A stretch of 38,985 bases of DNA from an uncultured Candidatus Peribacteria bacterium. Lineage in GTDB: Bacteria > Patescibacteriota > Gracilibacteria > Peribacterales > Peribacteraceae. Below are positions 5,068 to 37,404 of this stretch, one piece after another. The translations under genes and the position numbers were made by a program. Under the pieces are notes generated by a model, which did no database searches, was not told where the DNA came from, and saw only the letters and a program-made list of their open reading frames with translations. The DNA is taken from contig CAYJTW010000003.1 in NCBI GenBank assembly GCA_964373225.1, positions 1 through 38,985 on the forward strand, in the 5' to 3' direction. How positions within the stretch are numbered: the stretch's first letter is position 1; each line of letters opens with the position of its first letter.

Positions 5068-6150
5068 CGCCGCATACCGCTCTGCAATCCCGTCCCAGTC
5101 AAATTTCCGCGCATGCTCCACCGCCGCATCGGCCAGTTGCGTGCGGAATTTTTCGTCTTCGAGAAACATCCCCAGCACTCCGGCGGTCAGTTCCGGATTA
5201 TCGGGTTCTGTCAGCAGTCCCGTGACGCCGTCATGGACGACTTCGGGGATTCCTCCAATCTCCGTGCCGAGCACCGCGCAGCCGGCCGCTTGTGCTTCGA
5301 TGAAGACATTGCCCAGCGCTTCGGACCGCGAGAGCGCGCAGAAGATTTCGGCTTCGGCGTATTCTTGATACACAGATTGTCCGGTAAGAGCTCCGCAGAA
5401 CGTCACATGGGGTACGTTTCCATATTTCCTGCGTAAGTCGCCAAAAAGAGATCCGCTTCCGACAATATGAAGGGTTGCTGACGGATGCTGGTCATGAACG
5501 GAAACAAATGCTGCCAAGAGAGTATCCACACCTTTCATCTTCTCCAATCTTCCGACGAAGAGAATTCTCCCGGGGACTTTCTTCACCTCGCCGCACACTT
5601 TCCGGATCTCATCGTATGGAATGCCGTTCGGGATCACGATCGCATCCCGTCGTCCGAGTTTTGCTGCCTGATCTGCCAGTACTTTGCTGATGGCGGTAAT
5701 CACGTCCGGCGTTCTCATGATGTGATGGCGCAAAAAGTTCCGGTTCGTCGTCTGCAGCGTCAAAATCTGCTTCGCGTGAGGAACGACCAGGGTGCACATG
5801 TGGAGCGCGGCCCCGGCGAAGGTTTCGAGCACGGCATGGAGCACATCAGGCTTAAGCTTCCGCGCCGCGAACGGCGCGAGGAAGGGGTAGAGCCATTTAT
5901 CGAACGGAATGCCGAAGCCGACACGGATCACCGGCACCCCCCGGCCCACCTCACCCCCCGGCCCCCTCTCCGTGCCGCACGGAGAGGGGGAGAGGACATC
6001 CCGACGTGGAAGATCTCCCCGTAATTTTGCGGTGATGATCGTGATATCGAAGCGATCGCAGAGTCTCAGCGCCACTTCTTCGGCACATGCCTCCGCGCCG
6101 CTGCGAAACGGCGTGAGGAAGGCCGAGAAGATGACGATGCGACGGTTCAA
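5059..6150 (-). CDS. Glycosyltransferase family 4 (GT-B, glycosyl transferases group 1)
   Basis: 363 aa. C-terminal domain motifs LFVGRLEKMKGVD, SRSEALGNVFIEAQAAGCAVLGTEIGGIPEVV...G. The only in-frame start is TTG at 6150. Confidence 0.9.
   Translation of the reverse strand: MNRRIVIFSAFLTPFRSGAEACAEEVALRLCDRFDITIITAKLRGDLPRRDVLSPSPCGTERGPGGEVGRGVPVIRVGFGIPFDKWLYPFLAPFAARKLKPDVLHAVLETFAGAALHMCTLVVPHAKQILTLQTTNRNFLRHHIMRTPDVITAISKVLADQAAKLGRRDAIVIPNGIPYDEIRKVCGEVKKVPGRILFVGRLEKMKGVDTLLAAFVSVHDQHPSATLHIVGSGSLFGDLRRKYGNVPHVTFCGALTGQSVYQEYAEAEIFCALSRSEALGNVFIEAQAAGCAVLGTEIGGIPEVVHDGVTGLLTEPDNPELTAGVLGMFLEDEKFRTQLADAAVEHARKFDWDGIAERYAALY
5935..5990. repeat. In-CDS direct repeats plus a perfect hairpin
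   Basis: CACCCCCCGGCCC occurs at 5935-5947 and 5952-5964. A perfect 13-bp stem CCCCCTCTCCGTG / CACGGAGAGGGGG with a 3-nt loop lies at 5962-5990. On the minus strand it is translated as ...SPSPCGTERGPGGEVGRGVP... inside the GT4. Confidence 0.8.
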
Positions 6151-6180
6151 TGGAGAATGCAGAACGAAGAATGGAGAATT
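6149..6180. repeat. Left 32-nt terminal inverted repeat of the four-helix-bundle cassette
   Basis: AATGGAGAATGCAGAACGAAGAATGGAGAATT. Built from four tandem heptamers (GGAGAAT GCAGAAC GAAGAAT GGAGAAT). By hand alignment, 27/32 identical to the reverse complement of 6571-6602. Confidence 0.8.
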
Positions 6181-6535
6181 ATAAGAGATTCTTTTTTGCT
6201 GTATTTATGCTGGCAACCAATAGGGAAATGATCTCATTCAGTTCAAGCAATAACGATTGCGCTTCTTTCACGAATATTGGAGTTGTATCTCGGATAAGAC
6301 GGAGCCAAAAATCTGATTCGTTACCTTCTTTCAAAGCGATAGAAAGCTTTGAAATAAAATCGGGTTTGCTTTGTGCATGAGCTGCTTCTGCAACATTTGC
6401 CCCAATGCTGGTGCCTGATTTCAGTAATTGCTTGCTCAGAATGTATTCTTTTTCCTTCTGCATTTTTCTACAGAAATGAACAATCTTTATACTGAATGCA
6501 TAGGACTTGTCCCGAAGAGGATTTGGCTTCGCCAT
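6179..6535 (-). CDS. Four-helix-bundle protein (23S rRNA intervening-sequence protein / DGR Avd-like family)
   Basis: 118 aa. SYAFSIKIV.FC......EY.LSKQLLKSGTSIGANVAEA......DFISKLSIALKE..ES.FWL.L is the typical signature of this family. Confidence 0.85.
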   Translation of the reverse strand: MAKPNPLRDKSYAFSIKIVHFCRKMQKEKEYILSKQLLKSGTSIGANVAEAAHAQSKPDFISKLSIALKEGNESDFWLRLIRDTTPIFVKEAQSLLLELNEIISLLVASINTAKKNLL

Positions 6536-6570
6536 AGCTTATTACTGTCGAATATTCCCTATCAAAAGTC

Positions 6571-6602
6571 AATTCTCCGTTCTTCATTCTCCGTTCTCCG
6601 TT
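6571..6602. repeat. Right 32-nt terminal inverted repeat of the four-helix-bundle cassette
   Basis: AATTCTCCGTTCTTCATTCTCCGTTCTCCGTT, with heptamer periodicity. It overlaps the last codons (..ITENGE) and the stop codon of the GT4 gene 6584..7729. Confidence 0.8.
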
Positions 6603-16264: not shown

Positions 16265-18038
16265 GCGGGAGATGCGTACGCATAAGGCTATCAAATTGGG
16301 TGTTCTCGTCCTAACGGAAGTTCTCTGCGCCACGGCGGCCCTCTATGCGGCTCGCCAGATCATCATCAAAGGCATCCTGTATTGGTACGGGCTCCGCGGG
16401 CCCGACGCGACGCTCTACTTTACGATGGGCACGGCGCTCCAGAACGGCATCGCGCTGTACGGCGGCATCTTCGATCCCAAGCCCCCCGCGATTTTCCTCC
16501 TCAGCGCGCTGTCGCTCTCGATGTTCGGCAACGGGATGCTCGCGGAGATCCTGAATATCCTCATTCTCCTCTGCATTCCGGCGTTGTTCCTGTTTGTCGG
16601 ATATTCCTCTGCGAAAAAAAGGGATTGGGGGATCATTCAATTCTCCGTGATCGTCGGGATCACGTTGGCGCTGTACCACGCGACGATCGGCGGGGACATT
16701 CAGACGGAGTTTTACGGGGCGTTTTTTGGATTATTGTATTTGGCAGCGATCAATCGTGATCAGATGCGTCCGCACAGTGTCACCGTCATCCTGGCATCGG
16801 GGTGTTTCGCGATCGCACTGCTCTTCAAGGAACCGTTTCTCCTCACGCTCTTCGCTGCCGCGTTGTTGATGCTCAGGAAACGTCAGGAATGGCTGCGGCT
16901 CTTCGGCATTCCTCTCCTCACGGCATGCGCTCTCTATTTTATTGTGTTGCTGCACCTCGGGGGATTGCAGAATTACTTCACGTTGTACCTGCGCGGGATG
17001 CTGGGGAATTACATTCTTGCCGGAGGACCGGTGTGGGCGAGGGGACTCGTCGCGTGGGAACGGATGTCTATCAATGTGCTCGACTTCTCCGCCTGGTTTC
17101 CGCTTCTCATCCTCGCGCTCTTCCTCCTCTCGCTGCCGCGGCATCAGGGGAAGCGCGGACAGTGCATCGGCGTGACCGTCACGGCGCTGGGAATTTCATT
17201 CTTGATGACCGTCCGCGCATTCTTCCCCGTGCAATTTCCGTGGTGGAACACAGCGATCGGGACTGCGCTGATGATTCTCTCAATCAGCGCGGGCGCGTTT
17301 GCCGCGAGCATCTGGGGCGGCGGACTTCCGACATTCATCCGGCGGACGTGGCGCCATGGACTCGCGCTCTACATCACACTCACGGCCATCGGGCTCGGGA
17401 GCGGCTTCCATGGCCAGTACTTCGCGCTCGCGCTGCCGGTGTACTTCGCGTTTTTCCTGCTCTTCCTGCGACGCCAGACATCTGAACATCCCTTTTCGCG
17501 CATGACGGTTCTCGGATGCACGGCGCTCGCGGCGGTGGTTCTCCTCAGTTCACAGTCGTTCACGCGCGTGACGCCGCTCTCCGCGAAGATCTCTCAGATT
17601 CAGCAGCAGGACAGTCAGGACCATGCCGATGCGGCCGCGCTCGATGCGGTCCTCGATGCCTGCGCCATCGACCGGTATTACTCCCTGGAGAGTTCACCGC
17701 TCCCGTACGCGAAGCACTCGCCGCTCAATTTTTACCTCTACACGCGCATCGAACACATCGACCGCTACCATCCGGTCTTCTTTGACGAAAGCTTCCGGCG
17801 CCTCGGGCAGGCGCAGATCATCATTGAAAAATCGCCGTACGTTCCGTCACCGCGGAAGGGAAATGCAGAGGAGGAATGCATCGGGAAGAGCGTGCAGACA
17901 TTCGTGCAGAAGAACTTCACAGGGACGCCGCGTGCATGCGCAAAAAATCTTTCAGTGTCGGAGGGGTATCAGATTCTTTTTAGAAAAAATCAGGACGATC
18001 ATGCGAAGCCGGATGTTTTCACATGTACGACTCTGTGA
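16263..18038 (+). CDS. Polytopic membrane protein, GT-C-like (ArnT/PMT_2-type) putative glycosyltransferase
   Basis: About 590 aa. GGIFDPKPPAIFLLSAL resembles the conserved first-loop/helix motif of ArnT/PMT_2 enzymes. It has many TM segments and a hydrophilic C-terminal domain of about 150 aa. The start is ATG 16263 (MREMRTHK) or 16272; the TTG at 16206 is unlikely. Confidence 0.6.
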   Translation: MREMRTHKAIKLGVLVLTEVLCATAALYAARQIIIKGILYWYGLRGPDATLYFTMGTALQNGIALYGGIFDPKPPAIFLLSALSLSMFGNGMLAEILNILILLCIPALFLFVGYSSAKKRDWGIIQFSVIVGITLALYHATIGGDIQTEFYGAFFGLLYLAAINRDQMRPHSVTVILASGCFAIALLFKEPFLLTLFAAALLMLRKRQEWLRLFGIPLLTACALYFIVLLHLGGLQNYFTLYLRGMLGNYILAGGPVWARGLVAWERMSINVLDFSAWFPLLILALFLLSLPRHQGKRGQCIGVTVTALGISFLMTVRAFFPVQFPWWNTAIGTALMILSISAGAFAASIWGGGLPTFIRRTWRHGLALYITLTAIGLGSGFHGQYFALALPVYFAFFLLFLRRQTSEHPFSRMTVLGCTALAAVVLLSSQSFTRVTPLSAKISQIQQQDSQDHADAAALDAVLDACAIDRYYSLESSPLPYAKHSPLNFYLYTRIEHIDRYHPVFFDESFRRLGQAQIIIEKSPYVPSPRKGNAEEECIGKSVQTFVQKNFTGTPRACAKNLSVSEGYQILFRKNQDDHAKPDVFTCTTL

Positions 18039-18323
18039 TCACCCAAACAGATTTTCATGGGTGTCAGTTGCATAGAACGTGATTTTCTCATTGCCGTCGG
18101 CGTCGATGCTCAATTTGTACAACAACAGCCAGTCACCTTCAATGTGACAGTCGCGCATGCCAGCCCATTCCCCCCGCAATCCGTGATCTTTGTATTGCAG
18201 AGGCAACAATATTCCTTCAATCAACATATCCATCACAGCATTAAGTTTCGCAACGTCCCTTCCGGACCGCTGTATTTTTGCGTAATTGCGTCGGAAACGT
18301 TTTGCGAGTTTTGCAGATCTCAT
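18039..18323 (-). CDS. yafQ: Type II toxin, YafQ family mRNA interferase (RelE/ParE superfamily)
   Basis: 94 aa. YKDHGLRGEWAGMRDCHIEGDWLLLYKL...THENLFG aligns closely with the E. coli YafQ pattern YKDH.L.G.W.G.RD.H.E.DW.L.YKL....GTH..LFG. Confidence 0.9.
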   Translation of the reverse strand: MRSAKLAKRFRRNYAKIQRSGRDVAKLNAVMDMLIEGILLPLQYKDHGLRGEWAGMRDCHIEGDWLLLYKLSIDADGNEKITFYATDTHENLFG

Positions 18324-18601
18324 TTCAATTTACGTAAGGCTCTGAACATCGATTTTTTGTCCCGATATTCCCGTACACCTATTCCGAGATCAGTCTCGCG
18401 AATATCTTTCTGGAGTTGTGTATTCGGAATTTCCGATTGCTGGACCGGTGTCGGAGCAAAGGGAAGACCACCGAATCGCTTGATCTCCATGTACAGCAGA
18501 TAAATCGCCTGTGAAGGCTTGATGCCCTGGGTTCTCAGGATCAGTTCTGCTTCTTTTCGGAGCTTCGGATCGATGCGCTGTTGGATGCGTCCGGATGTCA
18601 T
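18320..18601 (-). CDS. dinJ: Type II antitoxin, DinJ/RelB family
   Basis: 93 aa from the ATG at 18601 (MTSGRIQQRIDPKLRKEAELIL...GLPF), with a ribbon-helix-helix-type N-terminus like DinJ. ATGA overlap with the toxin start. The ORF-track N-terminal extension to 18754 overlaps the neighbouring gene and is rejected. Confidence 0.85.
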   Translation of the reverse strand: MTSGRIQQRIDPKLRKEAELILRTQGIKPSQAIYLLYMEIKRFGGLPFAPTPVQQSEIPNTQLQKDIRETDLGIGVREYRDKKSMFRALRKLK

Positions 18602-19741: not shown

Positions 19742-20623
19742 CTACACGTTCTTATGATACCAATCGACGGTCTTCTGAAGCCCTGTTTTCAGCGGTGTCC
19801 AATGGAAATTCTTGAGAAGGGGGTTCAGCGGCATCGGCGGAAACGACGGCCCCTCCGGTTTTGAAGCATCGAAGACGATCTTCATCTCCGGTTTCATCAA
19901 ATCCCGGATCATTTCCGCGAGTTTGCCGATACTGACGCGCTCAGGAGGACAGAGGTACTGCATTCCGGTCACATTACCATCAATGAGCTCCATCAGCGCT
20001 GGCCCAACATCATTCGCGTACAAAAAAGAACGCAATTGCTTGCCGCTTCCCCACACGGTGAACGAGTATTTTCCTTCAGAACATTTTTTGATCAGCGATG
20101 GAATCACATTCGCATCAGCTCCGAAGTTGTCACCGGGTCCGTACGCACTCGCGGGACGGACGATCAGAAGAGGGGATTTGAGCTGAGCGCACACCTCCTG
20201 CCACCGATATTCACAGTGTAGTTTCCCCGCGGCGTATCCATCCTCAATTTTCTCCATTTCTAAGGAGCGGGCATTCTGCCCGCGTGCATAGGTTCCGAGA
20301 ATCGCCGTGCTGAAGAAGGTCACGGGAATGGATTTTTTGGAATCCAGGAGCGCCGAACTCAGCGCATCGGTCATCGCGAGATTGTTCTCGATCACTTCAT
20401 CACGGTGTTTCAAATGATACGCGACGTTGCGGCGGAAGGATGCGAGGTGGAAGACGTGATCGACGCCGGAGAGTATTTTTTTGCAGAAATCCGTGTCGCG
20501 AAGGTCTCCATCCGCATGCGACGGCGCGGAAACGTCAGCACCAAGTTGTCTCAAATGCCCGGCGAGAGCGCTCCCTAGGAGGCCGGTGCCGCCGGTGAGG
20601 AGGATGCGTGCATTGCGCTTCAT
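19742..20623 (-). CDS. NAD(P)-dependent epimerase/dehydratase/reductase (extended SDR)
   Basis: ILLTGGTGLLGSAL (Rossmann GxxGxxG), YAAGK (YxxxK catalytic pair). Substrate unknown. Its position next to the ColD/E1-like enzyme suggests a nucleotide-sugar 4-reductase/epimerase. Confidence 0.8.
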   Translation of the reverse strand: MKRNARILLTGGTGLLGSALAGHLRQLGADVSAPSHADGDLRDTDFCKKILSGVDHVFHLASFRRNVAYHLKHRDEVIENNLAMTDALSSALLDSKKSIPVTFFSTAILGTYARGQNARSLEMEKIEDGYAAGKLHCEYRWQEVCAQLKSPLLIVRPASAYGPGDNFGADANVIPSLIKKCSEGKYSFTVWGSGKQLRSFLYANDVGPALMELIDGNVTGMQYLCPPERVSIGKLAEMIRDLMKPEMKIVFDASKPEGPSFPPMPLNPLLKNFHWTPLKTGLQKTVDWYHKNV

Positions 20624-20648
20624 TCGAGTCTTATACCATCGGCTGTAC

Positions 20649-20676
20649 TTGACAAATAATTTTCAAATGATAATAT
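20649..20676 (+). promoter_or_regulatory. Candidate promoter abutting the start codon of the 88-aa ORF
   Basis: TTGACA (20649-20654), a 16-nt spacer, TAATAT (20671-20676), then 6 nt to the ATG at 20683. This would give an essentially leaderless transcript. Confidence 0.35.
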
Positions 20677-20682
20677 AATTAT

Positions 20683-20949
20683 ATGGCACATGAGCAACTG
20701 GAGGCAGTCATTCATGAACTTTCTGGATATTTTGAAGAAACGGAAGAGGTTTTGGGCTACCACAAAACACTTTCTCCAAATAGCAGCCTCGAACGTCAAG
20801 TGAGTCTTCTTGGGCAATTTCAAGATGCTCTTCGAGATCAACGAGAGACTGTGCTGAGAATTGTCAAAACGTTACCCATCGAACAAGCACGTTCGTTGCA
20901 GGTGGCCTGTGGAGAGAATCTGGGAGTCAATGAAGACGTCAAGGAATGA
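20683..20949 (+). CDS. Hypothetical 88-aa acidic protein (ORFan) in an AT-rich spacer
   Basis: An ORF in a visibly AT-richer segment between two minus-strand sugar genes, with a promoter-like sequence upstream. No recognisable motif. Confidence 0.45.
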   Translation: MAHEQLEAVIHELSGYFEETEEVLGYHKTLSPNSSLERQVSLLGQFQDALRDQRETVLRIVKTLPIEQARSLQVACGENLGVNEDVKE

Positions 20950-20950
20950 A

Positions 20951-22153
20951 CTATTTCCACTGTGAAAAAAATTCTGCAAATACGTCGCGAATGTAGGTCA
21001 GCTCCTTCTCGCCGAACCCCTGGTGACACCCGATGTAGAACCCGCAGCGGTTGACCCAGTCGGCGACAGGATAGTCTTTTGCATTGATCTTCATCCACTC
21101 GTAGCAGGGCTGGTTGATGAGGGGCATCATCTCGCGCGTCTCCACGTTCCAGTCTTCCAGATGCTGGATGAGGTCGATTTTTTTGAAGGGGGCGTCATCG
21201 CGAACCACAATTGGGAACATCATGAAGGCGTGTTCCTGCTTTTTGCTGTCGTACCATGGGAGCTGGAGGAATTTTTCAAAGGGCTTGAGTAGCTCAATCA
21301 ACGCTGCAGCATTCGATTGGCGTGATTGCAAGATTTCCCCGAATCTCTCCAGCTGCCCAATGCCGATTGCGGCTTCCATTTCGGTCCCGCGGCAGCTGTA
21401 GCCCCGGCGAATAAAGCGGAAGCGTCGACGAATGACTTCATGGAACTTGGCGCCGTCGATATCTTTATCGTCATCAATGCTCACGTAGATGTTGTCGCGG
21501 CCGTGGTTCGCCAGGCTGCGGATGATCTCGACGTATTGTTTATTGTTCGTGACCGCGAGACCGCCGACACCCGTCACGACCAGGTGTGCGACGTAGGTGG
21601 AAAAACAACTGATGTCGCCAAACGATCCCGCAGGCTTGCCGCGGTAGTTCACGCCGACGGTTTCACAGCTGTCTTCAATGATTTTCAGATTGTGTCCTGT
21701 CGCAATCGCGAGGATCGGATCCATGTCCGCGATCTGGCCAAAAAGGTGGACCGGCATGATCGCGCGCGTCTTCTTCGTAATCCTCGCTTCAATCTTCTCC
21801 GGATCAATGTTGTACGTTTTCGGGTCGCAGTCGACGAACACCGGCATCAAATTGTGTTCGAGGATAACGTTGGCCGTCGCGACGAACGTCAGCGCCGGCA
21901 TCAGAACTTCATCACCATCTTTCCATCCACCGACTTCCTTCAAGCACGCGACGGCGATGCTCAGGGCATTCGTTCCACTGTTCACGAAGACCGCGTAGTC
22001 ACAGCCGTGCATCTGCGCGAAGCGCTTCTCGAACTCGCGGATGAACGGCCCGTAGGAGAGGCGGTTACTCTCGAGCACCTTCATCACATTCGCCTTCTCC
22101 CCGGCGGTGAGTTGCAGCGTGCCGACGCCGAGTTGGGTGGGATAACGTTTCAT
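20951..22153 (-). CDS. DegT/DnrJ/EryC1/StrS-fold PLP/PMP enzyme with His replacing the Schiff-base Lys: ColD/E1-type nucleotide-sugar 3-dehydratase candidate
   Basis: 400 aa from MKRYPTQLG; the ORF-track start at 22219 overlaps hepT. The fold motifs LSYGPFIREFEKRFA and VNSGTNAL are present. At the position of S-F-x-x-x-K-x-x-x-x-G-E-G-G the sequence is C-F-S-T-Y-V-A-H-L-V-V-T-G-V-G-G. Confidence 0.75.
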   Translation of the reverse strand: MKRYPTQLGVGTLQLTAGEKANVMKVLESNRLSYGPFIREFEKRFAQMHGCDYAVFVNSGTNALSIAVACLKEVGGWKDGDEVLMPALTFVATANVILEHNLMPVFVDCDPKTYNIDPEKIEARITKKTRAIMPVHLFGQIADMDPILAIATGHNLKIIEDSCETVGVNYRGKPAGSFGDISCFSTYVAHLVVTGVGGLAVTNNKQYVEIIRSLANHGRDNIYVSIDDDKDIDGAKFHEVIRRRFRFIRRGYSCRGTEMEAAIGIGQLERFGEILQSRQSNAAALIELLKPFEKFLQLPWYDSKKQEHAFMMFPIVVRDDAPFKKIDLIQHLEDWNVETREMMPLINQPCYEWMKINAKDYPVADWVNRCGFYIGCHQGFGEKELTYIRDVFAEFFSQWK

Positions 22154-22158
22154 TGAGT

Positions 22159-22485
22159 TTAAATGCATTTTTTCAATGCCTCCAGCAGTCCGGGCAAATC
22201 TTCTTGATATGTCTTCCATAAAATTTCCAGATCCACTTCAAAGTAATGACGGATGAGCTTGTTCCGCATACTAATTATTTTGGAAAAGGGAAATTCTGCA
22301 TGCTTTTTCCTGAATTCGGGGGTCAGCTTTCCAGTCGCTTCTCCCAAAATTTCAAATAATCGCACGCATGCGTGCATACGCAGAGGATCCTGCACGAATT
22401 GTGCATACGTGTGATCTGCGAGGATGTTCTGGATTTCGCCGATCGCGTCGATCATATGCCGGACGAAAACTTCGTCGGTGTTCAT
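22159..22485 (-). CDS. hepT: HepT-type HEPN toxin (DUF86)
   Basis: 108 aa. The MRNKLIRHYFEVD motif fits HEPN Rx4-6H. ATGA-type 4-nt overlap with the upstream MNT gene. Confidence 0.8.
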   Translation of the reverse strand: MNTDEVFVRHMIDAIGEIQNILADHTYAQFVQDPLRMHACVRLFEILGEATGKLTPEFRKKHAEFPFSKIISMRNKLIRHYFEVDLEILWKTYQEDLPGLLEALKKCI

Positions 22486-22787
22486 GCTGGTACTTCAAAG
22501 AGCGGATCAGCTTCTCTCATGACATCATTACGGAAGTACCTACTCAAGCTTTTTGGTGTGCAGAGGTCGACATGTCGACCAAGTGCTTTTGAGAGTTGTT
22601 CTTCAATATCTATTAATGCAAACATGCTGATCGGTTCTTTAAATTCGATGAGTAGGTCCACGTCACTGGTTTTCTTCGCCGTGCCATGTAAATGTGATCC
22701 AAAAAGAGAAATACGGCGGATATTCCCCCGATAAGGAGATTTTTTCAGCGCTACCTGCAAATGCCGTTGAATATCCTGCTTTTTCAC
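22482..22787 (-). CDS. mntA: MntA-type minimal nucleotidyltransferase antitoxin
   Basis: 101 aa. LFGSHLHGTAKKTSDVDLLIEF (G-S-x10-D-x-D nucleotidyltransferase motif). GTG start. Confidence 0.8.
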   Translation of the reverse strand: MKKQDIQRHLQVALKKSPYRGNIRRISLFGSHLHGTAKKTSDVDLLIEFKEPISMFALIDIEEQLSKALGRHVDLCTPKSLSRYFRNDVMREADPLFEVPA

Positions 22788-22793
22788 AGGATA

Positions 22794-22802
22794 ACTATAC
22801 CA
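22794..22802 (-). promoter_or_regulatory. Extended -10 element (TGGTATAGT) just upstream of mntA
   Basis: The minus strand reads TGGTATAGT followed by 6 nt (TATCCT) and the GTG start of mntA, which would imply a leaderless or near-leaderless mRNA. Confidence 0.35.
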
Positions 22803-34833: not shown

Positions 34834-35502
34834 CTAGAAAAACGCGAGGTACTCCATGCCCCTCAACGTCCACTCCATCACCGTCACAATCCACAGCGAC
34901 AGGAGGGGAATATGCAGGAAATTTTCGGCGAGGAGGAGCCCCACCAGCACGTAGATCCCGATCCGCATGAATTCCTCGTACCGGTCGGAAAGCCGCAGGG
35001 GAATAAACGCCTCGAGAACTTTCGACCCGTCGAGCGGCGCGATCGGGATCAGATTGAACGCCATCAGCCCGAGATTGATAAAGAGGAACGCGCCGAGGAA
35101 CTGCAGCAGGAAGATCCGCACCACCGGTCCGCCGCCGCCGACCGAGAGCAGTTCCCACGGCGATGATCCTGCGGCACCCCCGAACATCTTCAGTATCGTA
35201 AAGGCGACGATCGCGAGGACGAGGTTACTGAACGGACCCGCGGCCGCCGTCAGGCAGGTGTCGCGTTTATAGTTACGGAAGTAGACAGGATTGATCGGCA
35301 CGGGCTTCGCCCACCCGAAGCCGACGGTTAAAAAGAGGAGCGCGCCGAGGAGGTCGAGGTGCGCGATCGGATTCAGCGTCAAGCGACCCGCATGGCCGGG
35401 AGTCGGATCACCGAGTTTTGTCGCCGTCACCGCGTGCGCCCACTCGTGGACGGAGATGGCGACGAGGAGCGCGAGGATGTAGGTGGGATTCAGAAACGGC
35501 AC
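34834..35502 (-). CDS. Site-2 protease family (peptidase M50) membrane metalloprotease
   Basis: 222 aa. HEWAHAVTA (HExxH in the first TM helix), NPIAHLD, NLIPIAPLDG (NxxPxxxLDG). Confidence 0.9.
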   Translation of the reverse strand: MPFLNPTYILALLVAISVHEWAHAVTATKLGDPTPGHAGRLTLNPIAHLDLLGALLFLTVGFGWAKPVPINPVYFRNYKRDTCLTAAAGPFSNLVLAIVAFTILKMFGGAAGSSPWELLSVGGGGPVVRIFLLQFLGAFLFINLGLMAFNLIPIAPLDGSKVLEAFIPLRLSDRYEEFMRIGIYVLVGLLLAENFLHIPLLSLWIVTVMEWTLRGMEYLAFF

Positions 35503-35584
35503 TCCATGAGTCTACAGGTTCTACAGTCTCCGTGTGTGGACCTTCTATTTGCAGGCAAGCAATAGATTGTTAGAATGCTGCACT

Positions 35585-37153
35585 ATGCCTGAGCAAAATA
35601 CCCCTACGCCATTGGCACGGCTCCACCAATCGGACGTTCATCTTCACAGGCTGATTACAAATCTTAGTACCGTTCCTCTTATGGATGATGATGCGACGGT
35701 GAAGCAGGTTGTGCAACACCTAAAAGAAGCTCAGCAGCTTCTCAGAATAGTCCTCGATTTACGTGAAGAAACAGATGAAGAAGAGGGAATGACACCGTCC
35801 CAATGCACTCTCGGCGCCATTGATGTTCTTTCTGAATTTCTCGGCAAGTATCCGAATTGCGGTGCACCCATTACCTATCTGCGAAGAGAGGCTCTTGAAG
35901 TTGTGAACACTGCCCGACATGCCAATGCCGGACAAATGACACCGGAGTATTTTTTCATTCGGTTGAGGCCGGAGATTGGGCGCAGATTATGTGACGTTGT
36001 GAATGTACCCTCTCTTGAGCCCACGGATGACGAACGCGCTTTTGGCGCATTTGCAATGACAATGTTTTCTTTTAAAGAATGTTCCACGCGACCCGAAAGA
36101 GCTTCTTTAATGGATGATAGAAAATTTCAACTACAGAAAAAACTTGCACCCAACAAAACCTCCCACTATCAGACATACATTGATCAAGCCAGTGCTCTTG
36201 GCATCAGCCTCAATGAAACGGAAACACTTATGTTGAGTATAACAATGAAGATGGTGCCGTGGCTCCGTGAAGTTGTTCAGAAAATTGGCGCTCCGTCGCA
36301 TCTTTCCAACGACACAGCATTTCAAGCTGCCTGTCGCTGTTTTGCAAGAAGCATACGGACGTACATACCCAAAACTGTAGATGCGCTTGAAAGATATATA
36401 GAATTCAATATTCGAAAGGAATTTGGTGCGCCGTCGGTTGAAAGCGATCGTGTGACTTCTTTGACCAAAAATCGTCAATTTGGAGAATGGTTACGTCAGC
36501 ACGCGGCATTTACTTTCGATGTCGTGGCCGAAATCGTGGGCAGTCATCCAGAATGCCAAGTACCCATTAAAGATCTAGATGATATCGCATTTGCGCAATT
36601 GCGTTCGATCGGGCGCGCGGCGGGAATTCGCTGCTTGCAGGAGGGATTTTTCTTCACGCACGTACGGGAGAACATCGTTCAGAAAGTCATGAAAAAAGCC
36701 CATCTGTCACCCTCGTCCTCTTCGGATGAAATGTCCGTCATTGGCATGGCATTTTCGGTCAATGGGCACTGCAAGTCGCGTTTTATGACGCTCAGTGAAA
36801 AAGAGGTTGCGCATCGTAAAGCATTCATTGATTGGGCCAAGAGAAATGTTCATCTTGAGCATTGTCGTGCTGCAGTCCAGCCGTATTCCGCATTGGGAAT
36901 TGCACTCGATGAGTTTGAAGAGGCAGTTCTCGCAGTGGCAATGCAGTATATGCCTGTGCTCCAAAATTTTCTGCGGGAATATCCAGCTCGATCGTACGTA
37001 TCCCCTCAGGCAGTCCTCCTGACATCCATTCGGGAATTGATTCTCATGGTACGGTCTTTTCCTGCCGACAGTGGCCAATGCCTCGCCGATCATGTCGAAG
37101 AGAAAATACGTATAGCGATTGCCCCTCTTACGCTTAACAAAAAGAACGCGTAA
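35585..37153 (+). CDS. Hypothetical 522-aa protein with an internal two-fold duplication (ORFan)
   Basis: Long ORF in a visibly AT-richer segment. The ATG at 35585 is preferred over the GTG at 35534. Two modules of about 210 aa are offset by about 232 residues; see findings. No known motif recognised. Confidence 0.7.
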   Translation: MPEQNTPTPLARLHQSDVHLHRLITNLSTVPLMDDDATVKQVVQHLKEAQQLLRIVLDLREETDEEEGMTPSQCTLGAIDVLSEFLGKYPNCGAPITYLRREALEVVNTARHANAGQMTPEYFFIRLRPEIGRRLCDVVNVPSLEPTDDERAFGAFAMTMFSFKECSTRPERASLMDDRKFQLQKKLAPNKTSHYQTYIDQASALGISLNETETLMLSITMKMVPWLREVVQKIGAPSHLSNDTAFQAACRCFARSIRTYIPKTVDALERYIEFNIRKEFGAPSVESDRVTSLTKNRQFGEWLRQHAAFTFDVVAEIVGSHPECQVPIKDLDDIAFAQLRSIGRAAGIRCLQEGFFFTHVRENIVQKVMKKAHLSPSSSSDEMSVIGMAFSVNGHCKSRFMTLSEKEVAHRKAFIDWAKRNVHLEHCRAAVQPYSALGIALDEFEEAVLAVAMQYMPVLQNFLREYPARSYVSPQAVLLTSIRELILMVRSFPADSGQCLADHVEEKIRIAIAPLTLNKKNA

Positions 37154-37194
37154 GAATTTGACGCCTCTTCTTTTCGTCGGTAGCCTTCCGGCCC

Positions 37195-37404
37195 ATGCCC
37201 CGCATCTGCGCCAAAACCGGCAAGAAGGCGAGCTTCGGAAACACCCGGAGCCACTCCATGCGCCACACCCGCAGGCAGTGGAAGCCGAACCTGCAGAACA
37301 AGCGCGTGTTTGATCCGGCGATGGGAACGTACAAGAGAATGAAAGTGTCGACGGGCTACCTTCGGACACTGGCGAAGAGATTGAAGGAGGGGAGGACGGT
37401 GTAG
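37195..37404 (+). CDS. rpmB: 50S ribosomal protein L28
   Basis: 69 aa. MPRICAKTGKKASFGNTRSHSMRHTRRQWKPNLQ matches the L28 pattern M.R.C..TGK....GN.RSH......R...PNL. Confidence 0.9.
   Translation: MPRICAKTGKKASFGNTRSHSMRHTRRQWKPNLQNKRVFDPAMGTYKRMKVSTGYLRTLAKRLKEGRTV

Follow-up and report, generated by a model that had tools for sequence, protein, structure and literature searches.

The open reading frame (ORF) described here encodes a protein of 522 amino acids, designated P0001, and occupies positions 35585..37153 (forward strand, stop codon included) of contig CAYJTW010000003.1 from an uncultured Candidatus Peribacteria bacterium. The window is the whole stretch of DNA analysed, 38,985 nucleotides (nt) of this contig. 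The ORF lies between the genes for an M50 metalloprotease and ribosomal protein L28 (rpmB). The source genome (G000; other genomes are likewise denoted by G numbers) amounts to 1.07 Mb in 131 contigs, is 86% complete and uses the standard genetic code. The frame, found by ORF listing and translation, runs uninterrupted from an ATG at 35585 to a stop codon at 37151-37153, and its product has a homolog, P0003, at E 7e-28. Taken together, the features described below identify P0001 as the product of an accessory gene that looks functional, in a bacterium of the Peribacteraceae (Peregrinibacteria), part of the candidate phyla radiation (CPR, or Patescibacteria). The broader object of interest is the protein family to which it belongs, one built of repeated modules that resemble region 2 of sigma-70 factors (sigma-2). 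The P0001 gene is a recently inserted and eroded member of that family.

The insert between M50 and rpmB

Comparison with other species of the genus defines an insert of 1692 bp (35503..37194, forward strand) between the divergent start codons of its two neighbors. The left flank is the gene for an M50 (site-2) metalloprotease (34834..35502, reverse strand), which every one of the ten species of the genus carries and whose identity across the genus is 67-94%. The right flank is rpmB (37195..37404, forward strand), 41 nt downstream of P0001. In 9 of 9 other species rpmB directly adjoins the M50 gene on the opposite strand. For example, in the closest species (G007, where the M50 gene is 94% identical) the spacer between the two is 59 bp, compared with 1692 bp here. 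Nucleotide similarity to G007 is lost at the start codon of M50 and regained nine bases inside rpmB, which means that the entire native spacer has been replaced. Because the site is empty in all nine congeners, the P0001 gene was with little doubt inserted recently and only in this lineage, a clean example of gene insertion with a conserved housekeeping gene on either side. At the insert neither terminal repeats nor a target duplication was found, and no mobility genes. The M50 start codon (35500-35502) is GTG here and ATG in the closest species.

M50-class site-2 proteases elsewhere cleave anti-sigma or pro-sigma factors. A functional link between P0001 and the M50 protease was considered and rejected, since the M50 gene adjoins rpmB without P0001 in each of the nine congeners.

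The base composition of the ORF is distinctive. Its GC content is 0.473 and its GC content at third codon positions (GC3) is 0.446; the window as a whole has a GC content of 0.565, and nine of its other genes have GC3 values of 0.68-0.86. A quantitative comparison agrees with the original remark, made from the sequence alone, that this is the longest visibly AT-richer segment: among all stretches of 1.57 kb in the window, the ORF has the lowest GC content. The accompanying suggestion of horizontal or recent acquisition is upheld both by the empty site in the congeners and by the contrast in GC3. Other, shorter patches of low GC (0.44-0.48 in 600-nt bins) occur at 6001-6600, 18001-18600, 20401-21000 and 22201-22800.

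A consensus scan gave one candidate promoter-like site (35548..35576, forward strand), TTTGCA-17-TAGAAT with a TG extension, that ends 8 nt 5' of the ATG. The number of promoter-like sites around P0001 is no greater than in shuffled sequence, and this one is a candidate only. An alternative GTG start at 35534 would add 17 residues to give a product of 539 amino acids. The ATG at 35585 was kept as the start because the GTG lies 5' of the sole promoter-like site and because the N-terminus of P0003 has the length of the ATG version. No Shine-Dalgarno sequence is visible upstream of P0001, and no terminator was found in the 41 nt between its stop codon and rpmB. With the promoter-like site only 8 nt from the ATG, these absences suggest that the P0001 mRNA may be nearly leaderless and that rpmB may now be co-transcribed with P0001. 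Since the native spacer upstream of rpmB has been replaced, rpmB must now be transcribed from a promoter that lies within the inserted ORF or 5' of it.

Domain layout and predicted structure

P0001 is an internally duplicated protein. Residues 80-273 align with residues 312-505 at an offset of 232 (BLASTP, 196 columns, 22% identity, 52 bits). The Smith-Waterman score of one half against the other is 126; shuffling the second half 2000 times gave 32 ± 5 and no score as high as the observed one (z = 18.9). The two diverged modules at an offset of about 232 residues that had been proposed by eye thus pass a formal repeat test, and all four peptide pairs first used to align them fall inside this alignment. 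No repeat between the two halves was found at the DNA level. The duplication must be old, since it is visible in the protein and nothing of it is left in the DNA. The alignments point firmly to an origin of P0001 by tandem duplication of a unit of ~230 residues, with a single-module protein similar to P0003 as the ancestor.

The protein opens with a head, an acidic N-terminal helical hairpin (residues 1-69, 35585..35791, forward strand, as are all the segments that follow). Its isoelectric point is 4.8, it aligns with the N-terminus of P0003, and its two helices are predicted by AlphaFold2 (AF2) at residues 9-29 and 36-63. The first unit then consists of a three-helix segment, X1 (residues 70-147, 35792..36025), delineated from the alignments to X2 and P0003 and from the AF2 model, followed by the first sigma-70 region-2-like domain (residues 148-289, 36026..36451). 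The second unit repeats this order, with the second X copy, X2 (residues 300-380, 36482..36724), placed by BLASTP and the P0003 alignment, and then the second region-2-like domain (residues 381-522, 36725..37150). Both domains are matched by A2, a family profile described below, the first at residues 178-287 with 82 bits and the second at residues 405-520 with 78 bits. In addition, phmmer ties residues 435-510 of the second domain to a four-module protein, P0004, at a database-wide E of 7.2e-5. The analysis found no sigma-factor region 3 or region 4 in P0001, and neither a signal peptide nor a membrane segment.

The X segment opens each unit of ~230 residues and is present only in P0001, as X1 and X2, and in P0003. 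It has no Pfam match and no match among Protein Data Bank (PDB) sequences, and HMMER gave nothing. Its helices have a sigma-2-like spacing, and hhalign aligns it with the module profile at only P 0.0085, in matching register. The X segment may be a further, more decayed sigma-2 unit.

Structure prediction agrees with the original description of a mostly helical, soluble protein. The AF2 model of residues 1-289, built from a 7-row alignment, is all-helical with no strands, at a mean predicted local distance difference test score (pLDDT) of 76 and a predicted template modeling score of 0.57; pLDDT reaches 80-90 across residues 211-280 in the first domain. A model built from the single sequence was uninformative (pLDDT 45). 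About half of the top 50 Foldseek matches of the 1-289 model in the PDB are sigma-A or sigma-70 holoenzyme chains or sigma-2 fragments (4ki2, 3les, 1sig, 5yix); the significance of these matches is taken up below. A fold search of the same model against BFVD gave nothing significant, with no match at E < 1.

Relatives in the Peribacteraceae

Close relatives of P0001 are rare. Only two were recovered when 1.84 billion representative proteins were scanned in full with HMMER. The first, P0003, is a single-module protein of 284 amino acids on a 1.4-kb Logan contig, flanked by a prolyl-tRNA synthetase gene (~75% identical to that of the present genus) and an apparent mscL; the E value of 7e-28 given above is database-wide. 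P0003 aligns with residues 29-283 of P0001 at 30% identity (pairwise E 4e-32) and with the second module at E 3e-15. The second relative, P0004 (also listed as P0002), is a protein of 768 amino acids encoded by G002, a genome of the same genus. It has four modules, each of which matches residues 435-510 and 190-280 of P0001. Word-indexed protein searches with P0001 and with P0003 recovered in each case the query alone. The same was true of a word-indexed search with the full-length family alignment, for which the first sequence alone supplied the words.

Profiles extend the family considerably. Profile A1, made from the seven modules of P0001, P0003 and P0004, was run over 200 Peribacteraceae genomes and matched in 15 of them, mostly in proteins with 2-4 modules. 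Multi-module members were found in G097, G098, G063, G168, G077, G025, G016, G142 and G008. A match in G009 from the first search for relatives is a guanylate kinase and was discarded as spurious. Profile A2, made from 22 modules, was then applied to 401 genomes sampled across the class; it matched in 11 of 64 Peribacteraceae genomes and added members in G149, G144, G202, G079 and G199. Outside the Peribacteraceae it matched in 1 of ~336 genomes (G300), and there the protein is a genuine FliA-type sigma factor. In these two scans, then, the family was detected only in Peribacteraceae.

Family members share an architecture of an N-terminal helical hairpin followed by 2-4 modules, which are joined by variable, often low-complexity linkers and carry the pattern RFxxWA ... 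PW ... FDP ... FxxFA. P0001 has the helical hairpin and two modules that match A2 (82 and 78 bits). The modules of P0001 and P0003 align with the family modules at an hhalign probability of 97.4% (P 1.2e-11, 86 columns) in a comparison that left out the P0001 and P0003 modules themselves and all modules of the same-genus G002. Because the match persists without its own and same-genus modules, the placement of P0001 in this Peribacteraceae family of head-plus-sigma-2-repeat proteins is solid. It differs from the other members in its degenerate motifs and its extra X segments, and these comparisons place it as the most divergent branch of the family. The earlier description of P0001 as an ORFan is superseded by the single-module relative and by this family. 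The gain for annotation is that P0001 turns from an apparent ORFan into a protein with a place in a family.

The same evidence disposes of the simplest alternative, that P0001 is not a gene at all but an open frame that arose by chance in AT-rich DNA, intergenic or junk. The lack of a visible Shine-Dalgarno sequence would fit such a frame. A frame of that kind would hardly have a protein homolog at E 7e-28, an internal repeat visible in the protein only, a match to A2 of ~80 bits on each module, or an AF2 model with a pLDDT of 76. Conservation at the protein level refutes a chance frame for practical purposes, and its probability is negligible.

Two members of the family are fused to other domains. 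In G202 a frame of 904 amino acids, cut at its 5' end (L098, G202:C19:5808-9092), has three N-terminal repeats of the DNA-binding transposase-type helix-turn-helix (HTH) domain HTH_Tnp_1 (36 bits) followed by three sigma-2-like modules. In G142 a protein of 739 amino acids (L022, G142:C15:75218-78514) matches Sigma70_r4_2 weakly (E 0.12), and its gene lies tail-to-tail with an rpoD-like gene. These fusions fit a role of the family linked to DNA or transcription, without settling it.

The genomic location of the family genes varies. In the genus of P0001 alone they occupy three loci: the M50-rpmB site (P0001), a site with a purC-like neighbor (G002) and one with a purB-like neighbor (G008), the neighbors being identified by eye. 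The family genes are lower in GC than their flanks in G002, G008, G077 and the P0003 contig; they are not in G097, G098, G168, G025 and G016. One ortholog pair, from G097 and G098 of a single genus, shares a locus beside an obg-like gene (identified by eye) and is 50% identical. The ratio of nonsynonymous to synonymous substitution rates (dN/dS) for this pair is ~0.33, with dS near saturation. The family appears from this to evolve fast, yet under constraint by purifying selection.

This pattern bears on the possibility that P0001 is a fast-evolving helical protein derived from a mobile element, for which sigma-2 ancestry is irrelevant, and which serves as a scaffold or conflict factor or is a decaying, near-neutral passenger. 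The singleton insert with its foreign codon composition, the existence of only one closer relative (P0003) among about 15 billion proteins, the patchy distribution at differing loci even within a genus, the lower GC in several members, and the degraded sigma motifs described below would all be expected of such a protein. On the other hand, an intact 522-residue frame persists at 47% GC, the helix pattern is common to both old copies and to P0003, and the family orthologs are under purifying selection. Neither phage and defense libraries nor viral contigs gave a match. Phages and defense islands had been named as settings to look for; PHROGs gave only matches at E > 0.03 with P0001, PADLOC gave nothing with P0001 or P0003, and neither P0001 nor the P0001/P0003 alignment found a relative in IMG/VR viral contigs or in JGI metagenome contigs. 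An origin of this kind is considered unlikely, if somewhat less so than the two alternatives discussed in the next section.

Kinship with sigma-70 region 2 and possible roles

The ends of the modules in the G002 protein resemble sigma-70 region 2 by simple reading (...FDPxxGxxFxxYA...). Profile searches support this resemblance. Among PDB sequences A2 has 31 matches at E <= 10, most of them sigma factors. The best are 8x6g_H (E 2e-4), FliA (2.4e-4 to 3.4e-4) and SigF (1l0o_C, 3.6e-3), and RpoS, WhiG, SigA, RpoH and SigI are also found; E values for the solved sigma factors range from 2e-4 to 4e-2. All of these alignments are to region 2, the best one pairing profile positions 10-100 with chain residues 16-102. 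When the family modules were compared by hhalign with 38 non-identical, genuine sigma-2 domains taken from the source genome and its relatives, the probability was 85% (P 5.9e-6), and P changed little when the P0001 and G002 modules were left out (P 7.3e-6). A1 and A2 also retrieve genuine sigma factors, in G024 (region 2, 25.3 bits; region 4, 41 bits), G193 (49 and 43 bits) and G300. Sub-threshold matches to Pfam Sigma70_r2 (PF04542) occur in relatives of P0001, for example in P0002 (E 0.13, profile positions 2-68 of 71) and in the G063 protein (E 0.057), and every family member falls below the Pfam threshold for this domain.

The likeness is thus to the sigma-2 domain as a whole (regions 1.2-2.4, as in FliA/WhiG, SigB/SigF and RpoS), with a best E of 2e-4 and P of 6e-6, and the order and lengths of the helices in the AF2 model of P0001 are predicted to agree with it. 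The family module is very probably homologous to sigma-2. By these comparisons the C-terminal ~110-140 residues of each unit are very probably a strongly diverged sigma-2 of the group-3 (FliA/SigB/SigF) type. The statement that P0001 holds no recognizable motif therefore no longer stands for the family module, which sensitive profile searches have placed. For the protein itself the outcome is divided: a known domain family is reached via the family profile, while Pfam, NCBIfam and the sigma-2 hidden Markov model (HMM) are silent on P0001.

P0001 and its relatives differ from sigma-70 factors in several ways. P0001 has two copies of the domain, its relatives up to four, and P0001 has neither region 3 nor region 4. 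No family member has region 4 at the Pfam threshold; Sigma70_r4 or r4_2 was not found in P0001, P0002, P0003 or most other members, the only match being the weak one in G142. The motifs have also changed. Region 2.2 reads DLIQEG in sigma factors (DLxQxG) and ELIQAG or DLxTAG in other family members, where FDP is kept as well. In P0001 these motifs are replaced, and it is the degenerate, most eroded member of the family.

The function of these proteins is best considered from what sigma-2 does. It is through this domain that sigma factors are anchored to the beta-prime clamp helices of RNA polymerase and recognize the -10 element; recognition of the -35 element and binding to the beta flap fall to the helix-turn-helix of region 4 (sigma-4). 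Because P0001 has sigma-2 ancestry, no domain to read the -35 element and degraded melting and core-binding residues, it would be expected to act through sigma-like protein contacts with the transcription machinery, and would itself be no promoter-specifying sigma. It might take up the site on RNA polymerase where sigma-2 docks, or bridge it, in competition with true sigma factors, a mechanism that is possible and proposed tentatively. The best explanation overall is broader: P0001 may well be an inserted, duplicated, sigma-2-derived protein that acts on RNA polymerase or on a sigma partner, although confidence in this stops a little short of even. More speculative, and on present estimates rather unlikely, is that the head-plus-sigma-2-repeat proteins form a new class of transcription regulators, polyvalent sigma-2 arrays that would attach to the beta-prime clamp helices of a single core enzyme or of several and in this way sequester, bridge or re-target the polymerase, with P0001 as a recently transferred, rapidly diverging member.

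Several results weigh against the best explanation. Pfam gives no Sigma70_r2 match even at E <= 10, NCBIfam nothing significant, and an HMM of genuine sigma-2 domains only E 0.57, which is not significant. Compared directly with sigma-2, the three modules of P0001 and P0003 reach only P 0.011 by hhalign, and the link of P0001 to sigma-2 is transitive, running through the family profile. In a profile-guided alignment the region 2.2 motif of P0001 is TAFQAA in the first domain and AVLLTS in the second, and FDP is replaced by YIP and FPA. With both motifs degraded, binding to RNA polymerase may have been lost in P0001. The Foldseek matches in the PDB noted above all have E >= 1 and are not significant. 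No conserved neighborhood or anti-sigma partner was found beside family members, nor any phage context for the family, and the literature searched holds no experiments on any member.

An alternative at the other extreme is that P0001 is a genuine sigma factor of odd architecture, in which one domain docks on the polymerase and reads a -10-like element and the others replace region 4 or add contacts. The modules do align with group-3 sigma factors across all of region 2, the region 2.3 pattern F..YA...IR is found in G002 and G063, and relatives carry the HTH fusion (G202) or the weak region 4 (G142). Working sigma factors can be partial or split: in phage T4 gp55 and Bacillus subtilis SigO-RsoA a sigma-2-like polypeptide without region 4 acts on RNA polymerase. 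These have a single sigma-2 domain and require a partner subunit or sliding clamp, unlike P0001, and phage libraries have no match to it. In P0001 regions 3 and 4 were not found, the core-binding and melting signature residues are largely replaced (no aromatic melting residues align), and 2-4 copies of sigma-2 per chain would be without known precedent among working sigma factors. The source genome, moreover, already has two canonical sigma-70 family genes. This alternative is judged improbable.

Equally improbable is that P0001 is a sigma mimic or decoy, whose sigma-2-like domains titrate an anti-sigma factor or a sigma-2-binding activator in the manner of PhyR. Sigma factor mimicry is an established mechanism, as exemplified by PhyR and NepR (reviewed in PMC4598750 and PMC8103513). 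By functional analogy only, PhyR is comparable in that a domain of sigma origin, no longer working as a sigma factor, acts via protein-protein contacts. A mimic would be expected to keep the fold while the motifs that contact RNA polymerase and DNA degenerate, which is what P0001 displays, and several copies per chain would raise avidity. However, PhyR copies sigma-2 and sigma-4 jointly and adds a receiver domain. P0001 has sigma-2 only, with no match to Response_reg or sigma-4, no receiver domain or other switch was found in it, and no candidate anti-sigma gene lies beside any family member.

The preferred reading, a sigma-2-derived protein acting on RNA polymerase or a sigma partner, would have wider implications. 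Bacterial initiation factors are universally anchored on RNA polymerase by sigma-2, and proteins made up of several sigma-2 domains alone are undescribed in the libraries and literature searched. Specifically, a sigma-2 repeat architecture without region 4 is absent from Pfam, NCBIfam, PHROGs, PADLOC and that literature. What is known is the sigma-2 domain; what is new is the multi-sigma-2 architecture and the family that carries it. If polymerase binding is true, these proteins would represent a new way to regulate or store RNA polymerase in CPR bacteria, organisms with very small genomes, few conventional regulators and a poorly understood regulatory repertoire.

Unusual sigma factors are also seen in the genomes surveyed. 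In G193 a FliA-type sigma factor of 485 amino acids (L101, G193:C14:3546-6770) has an N-terminal extension of ~250 residues that looks like repeated HTH units. The rpoD-like gene of the source genome (L009, G000:C8:4507-7686) contains a short stretch read as X in region 2.4, which makes its frame look split in six-frame translation. Genomes of the family and class, at only ~0.7-1.5 Mb, have 2-8 Sigma70_r2 matches each, a large and unusual sigma repertoire for their size, and several of these matches lie in frames of 570-730 amino acids (e.g., G008:C27, G006:C4 and G016:C7).

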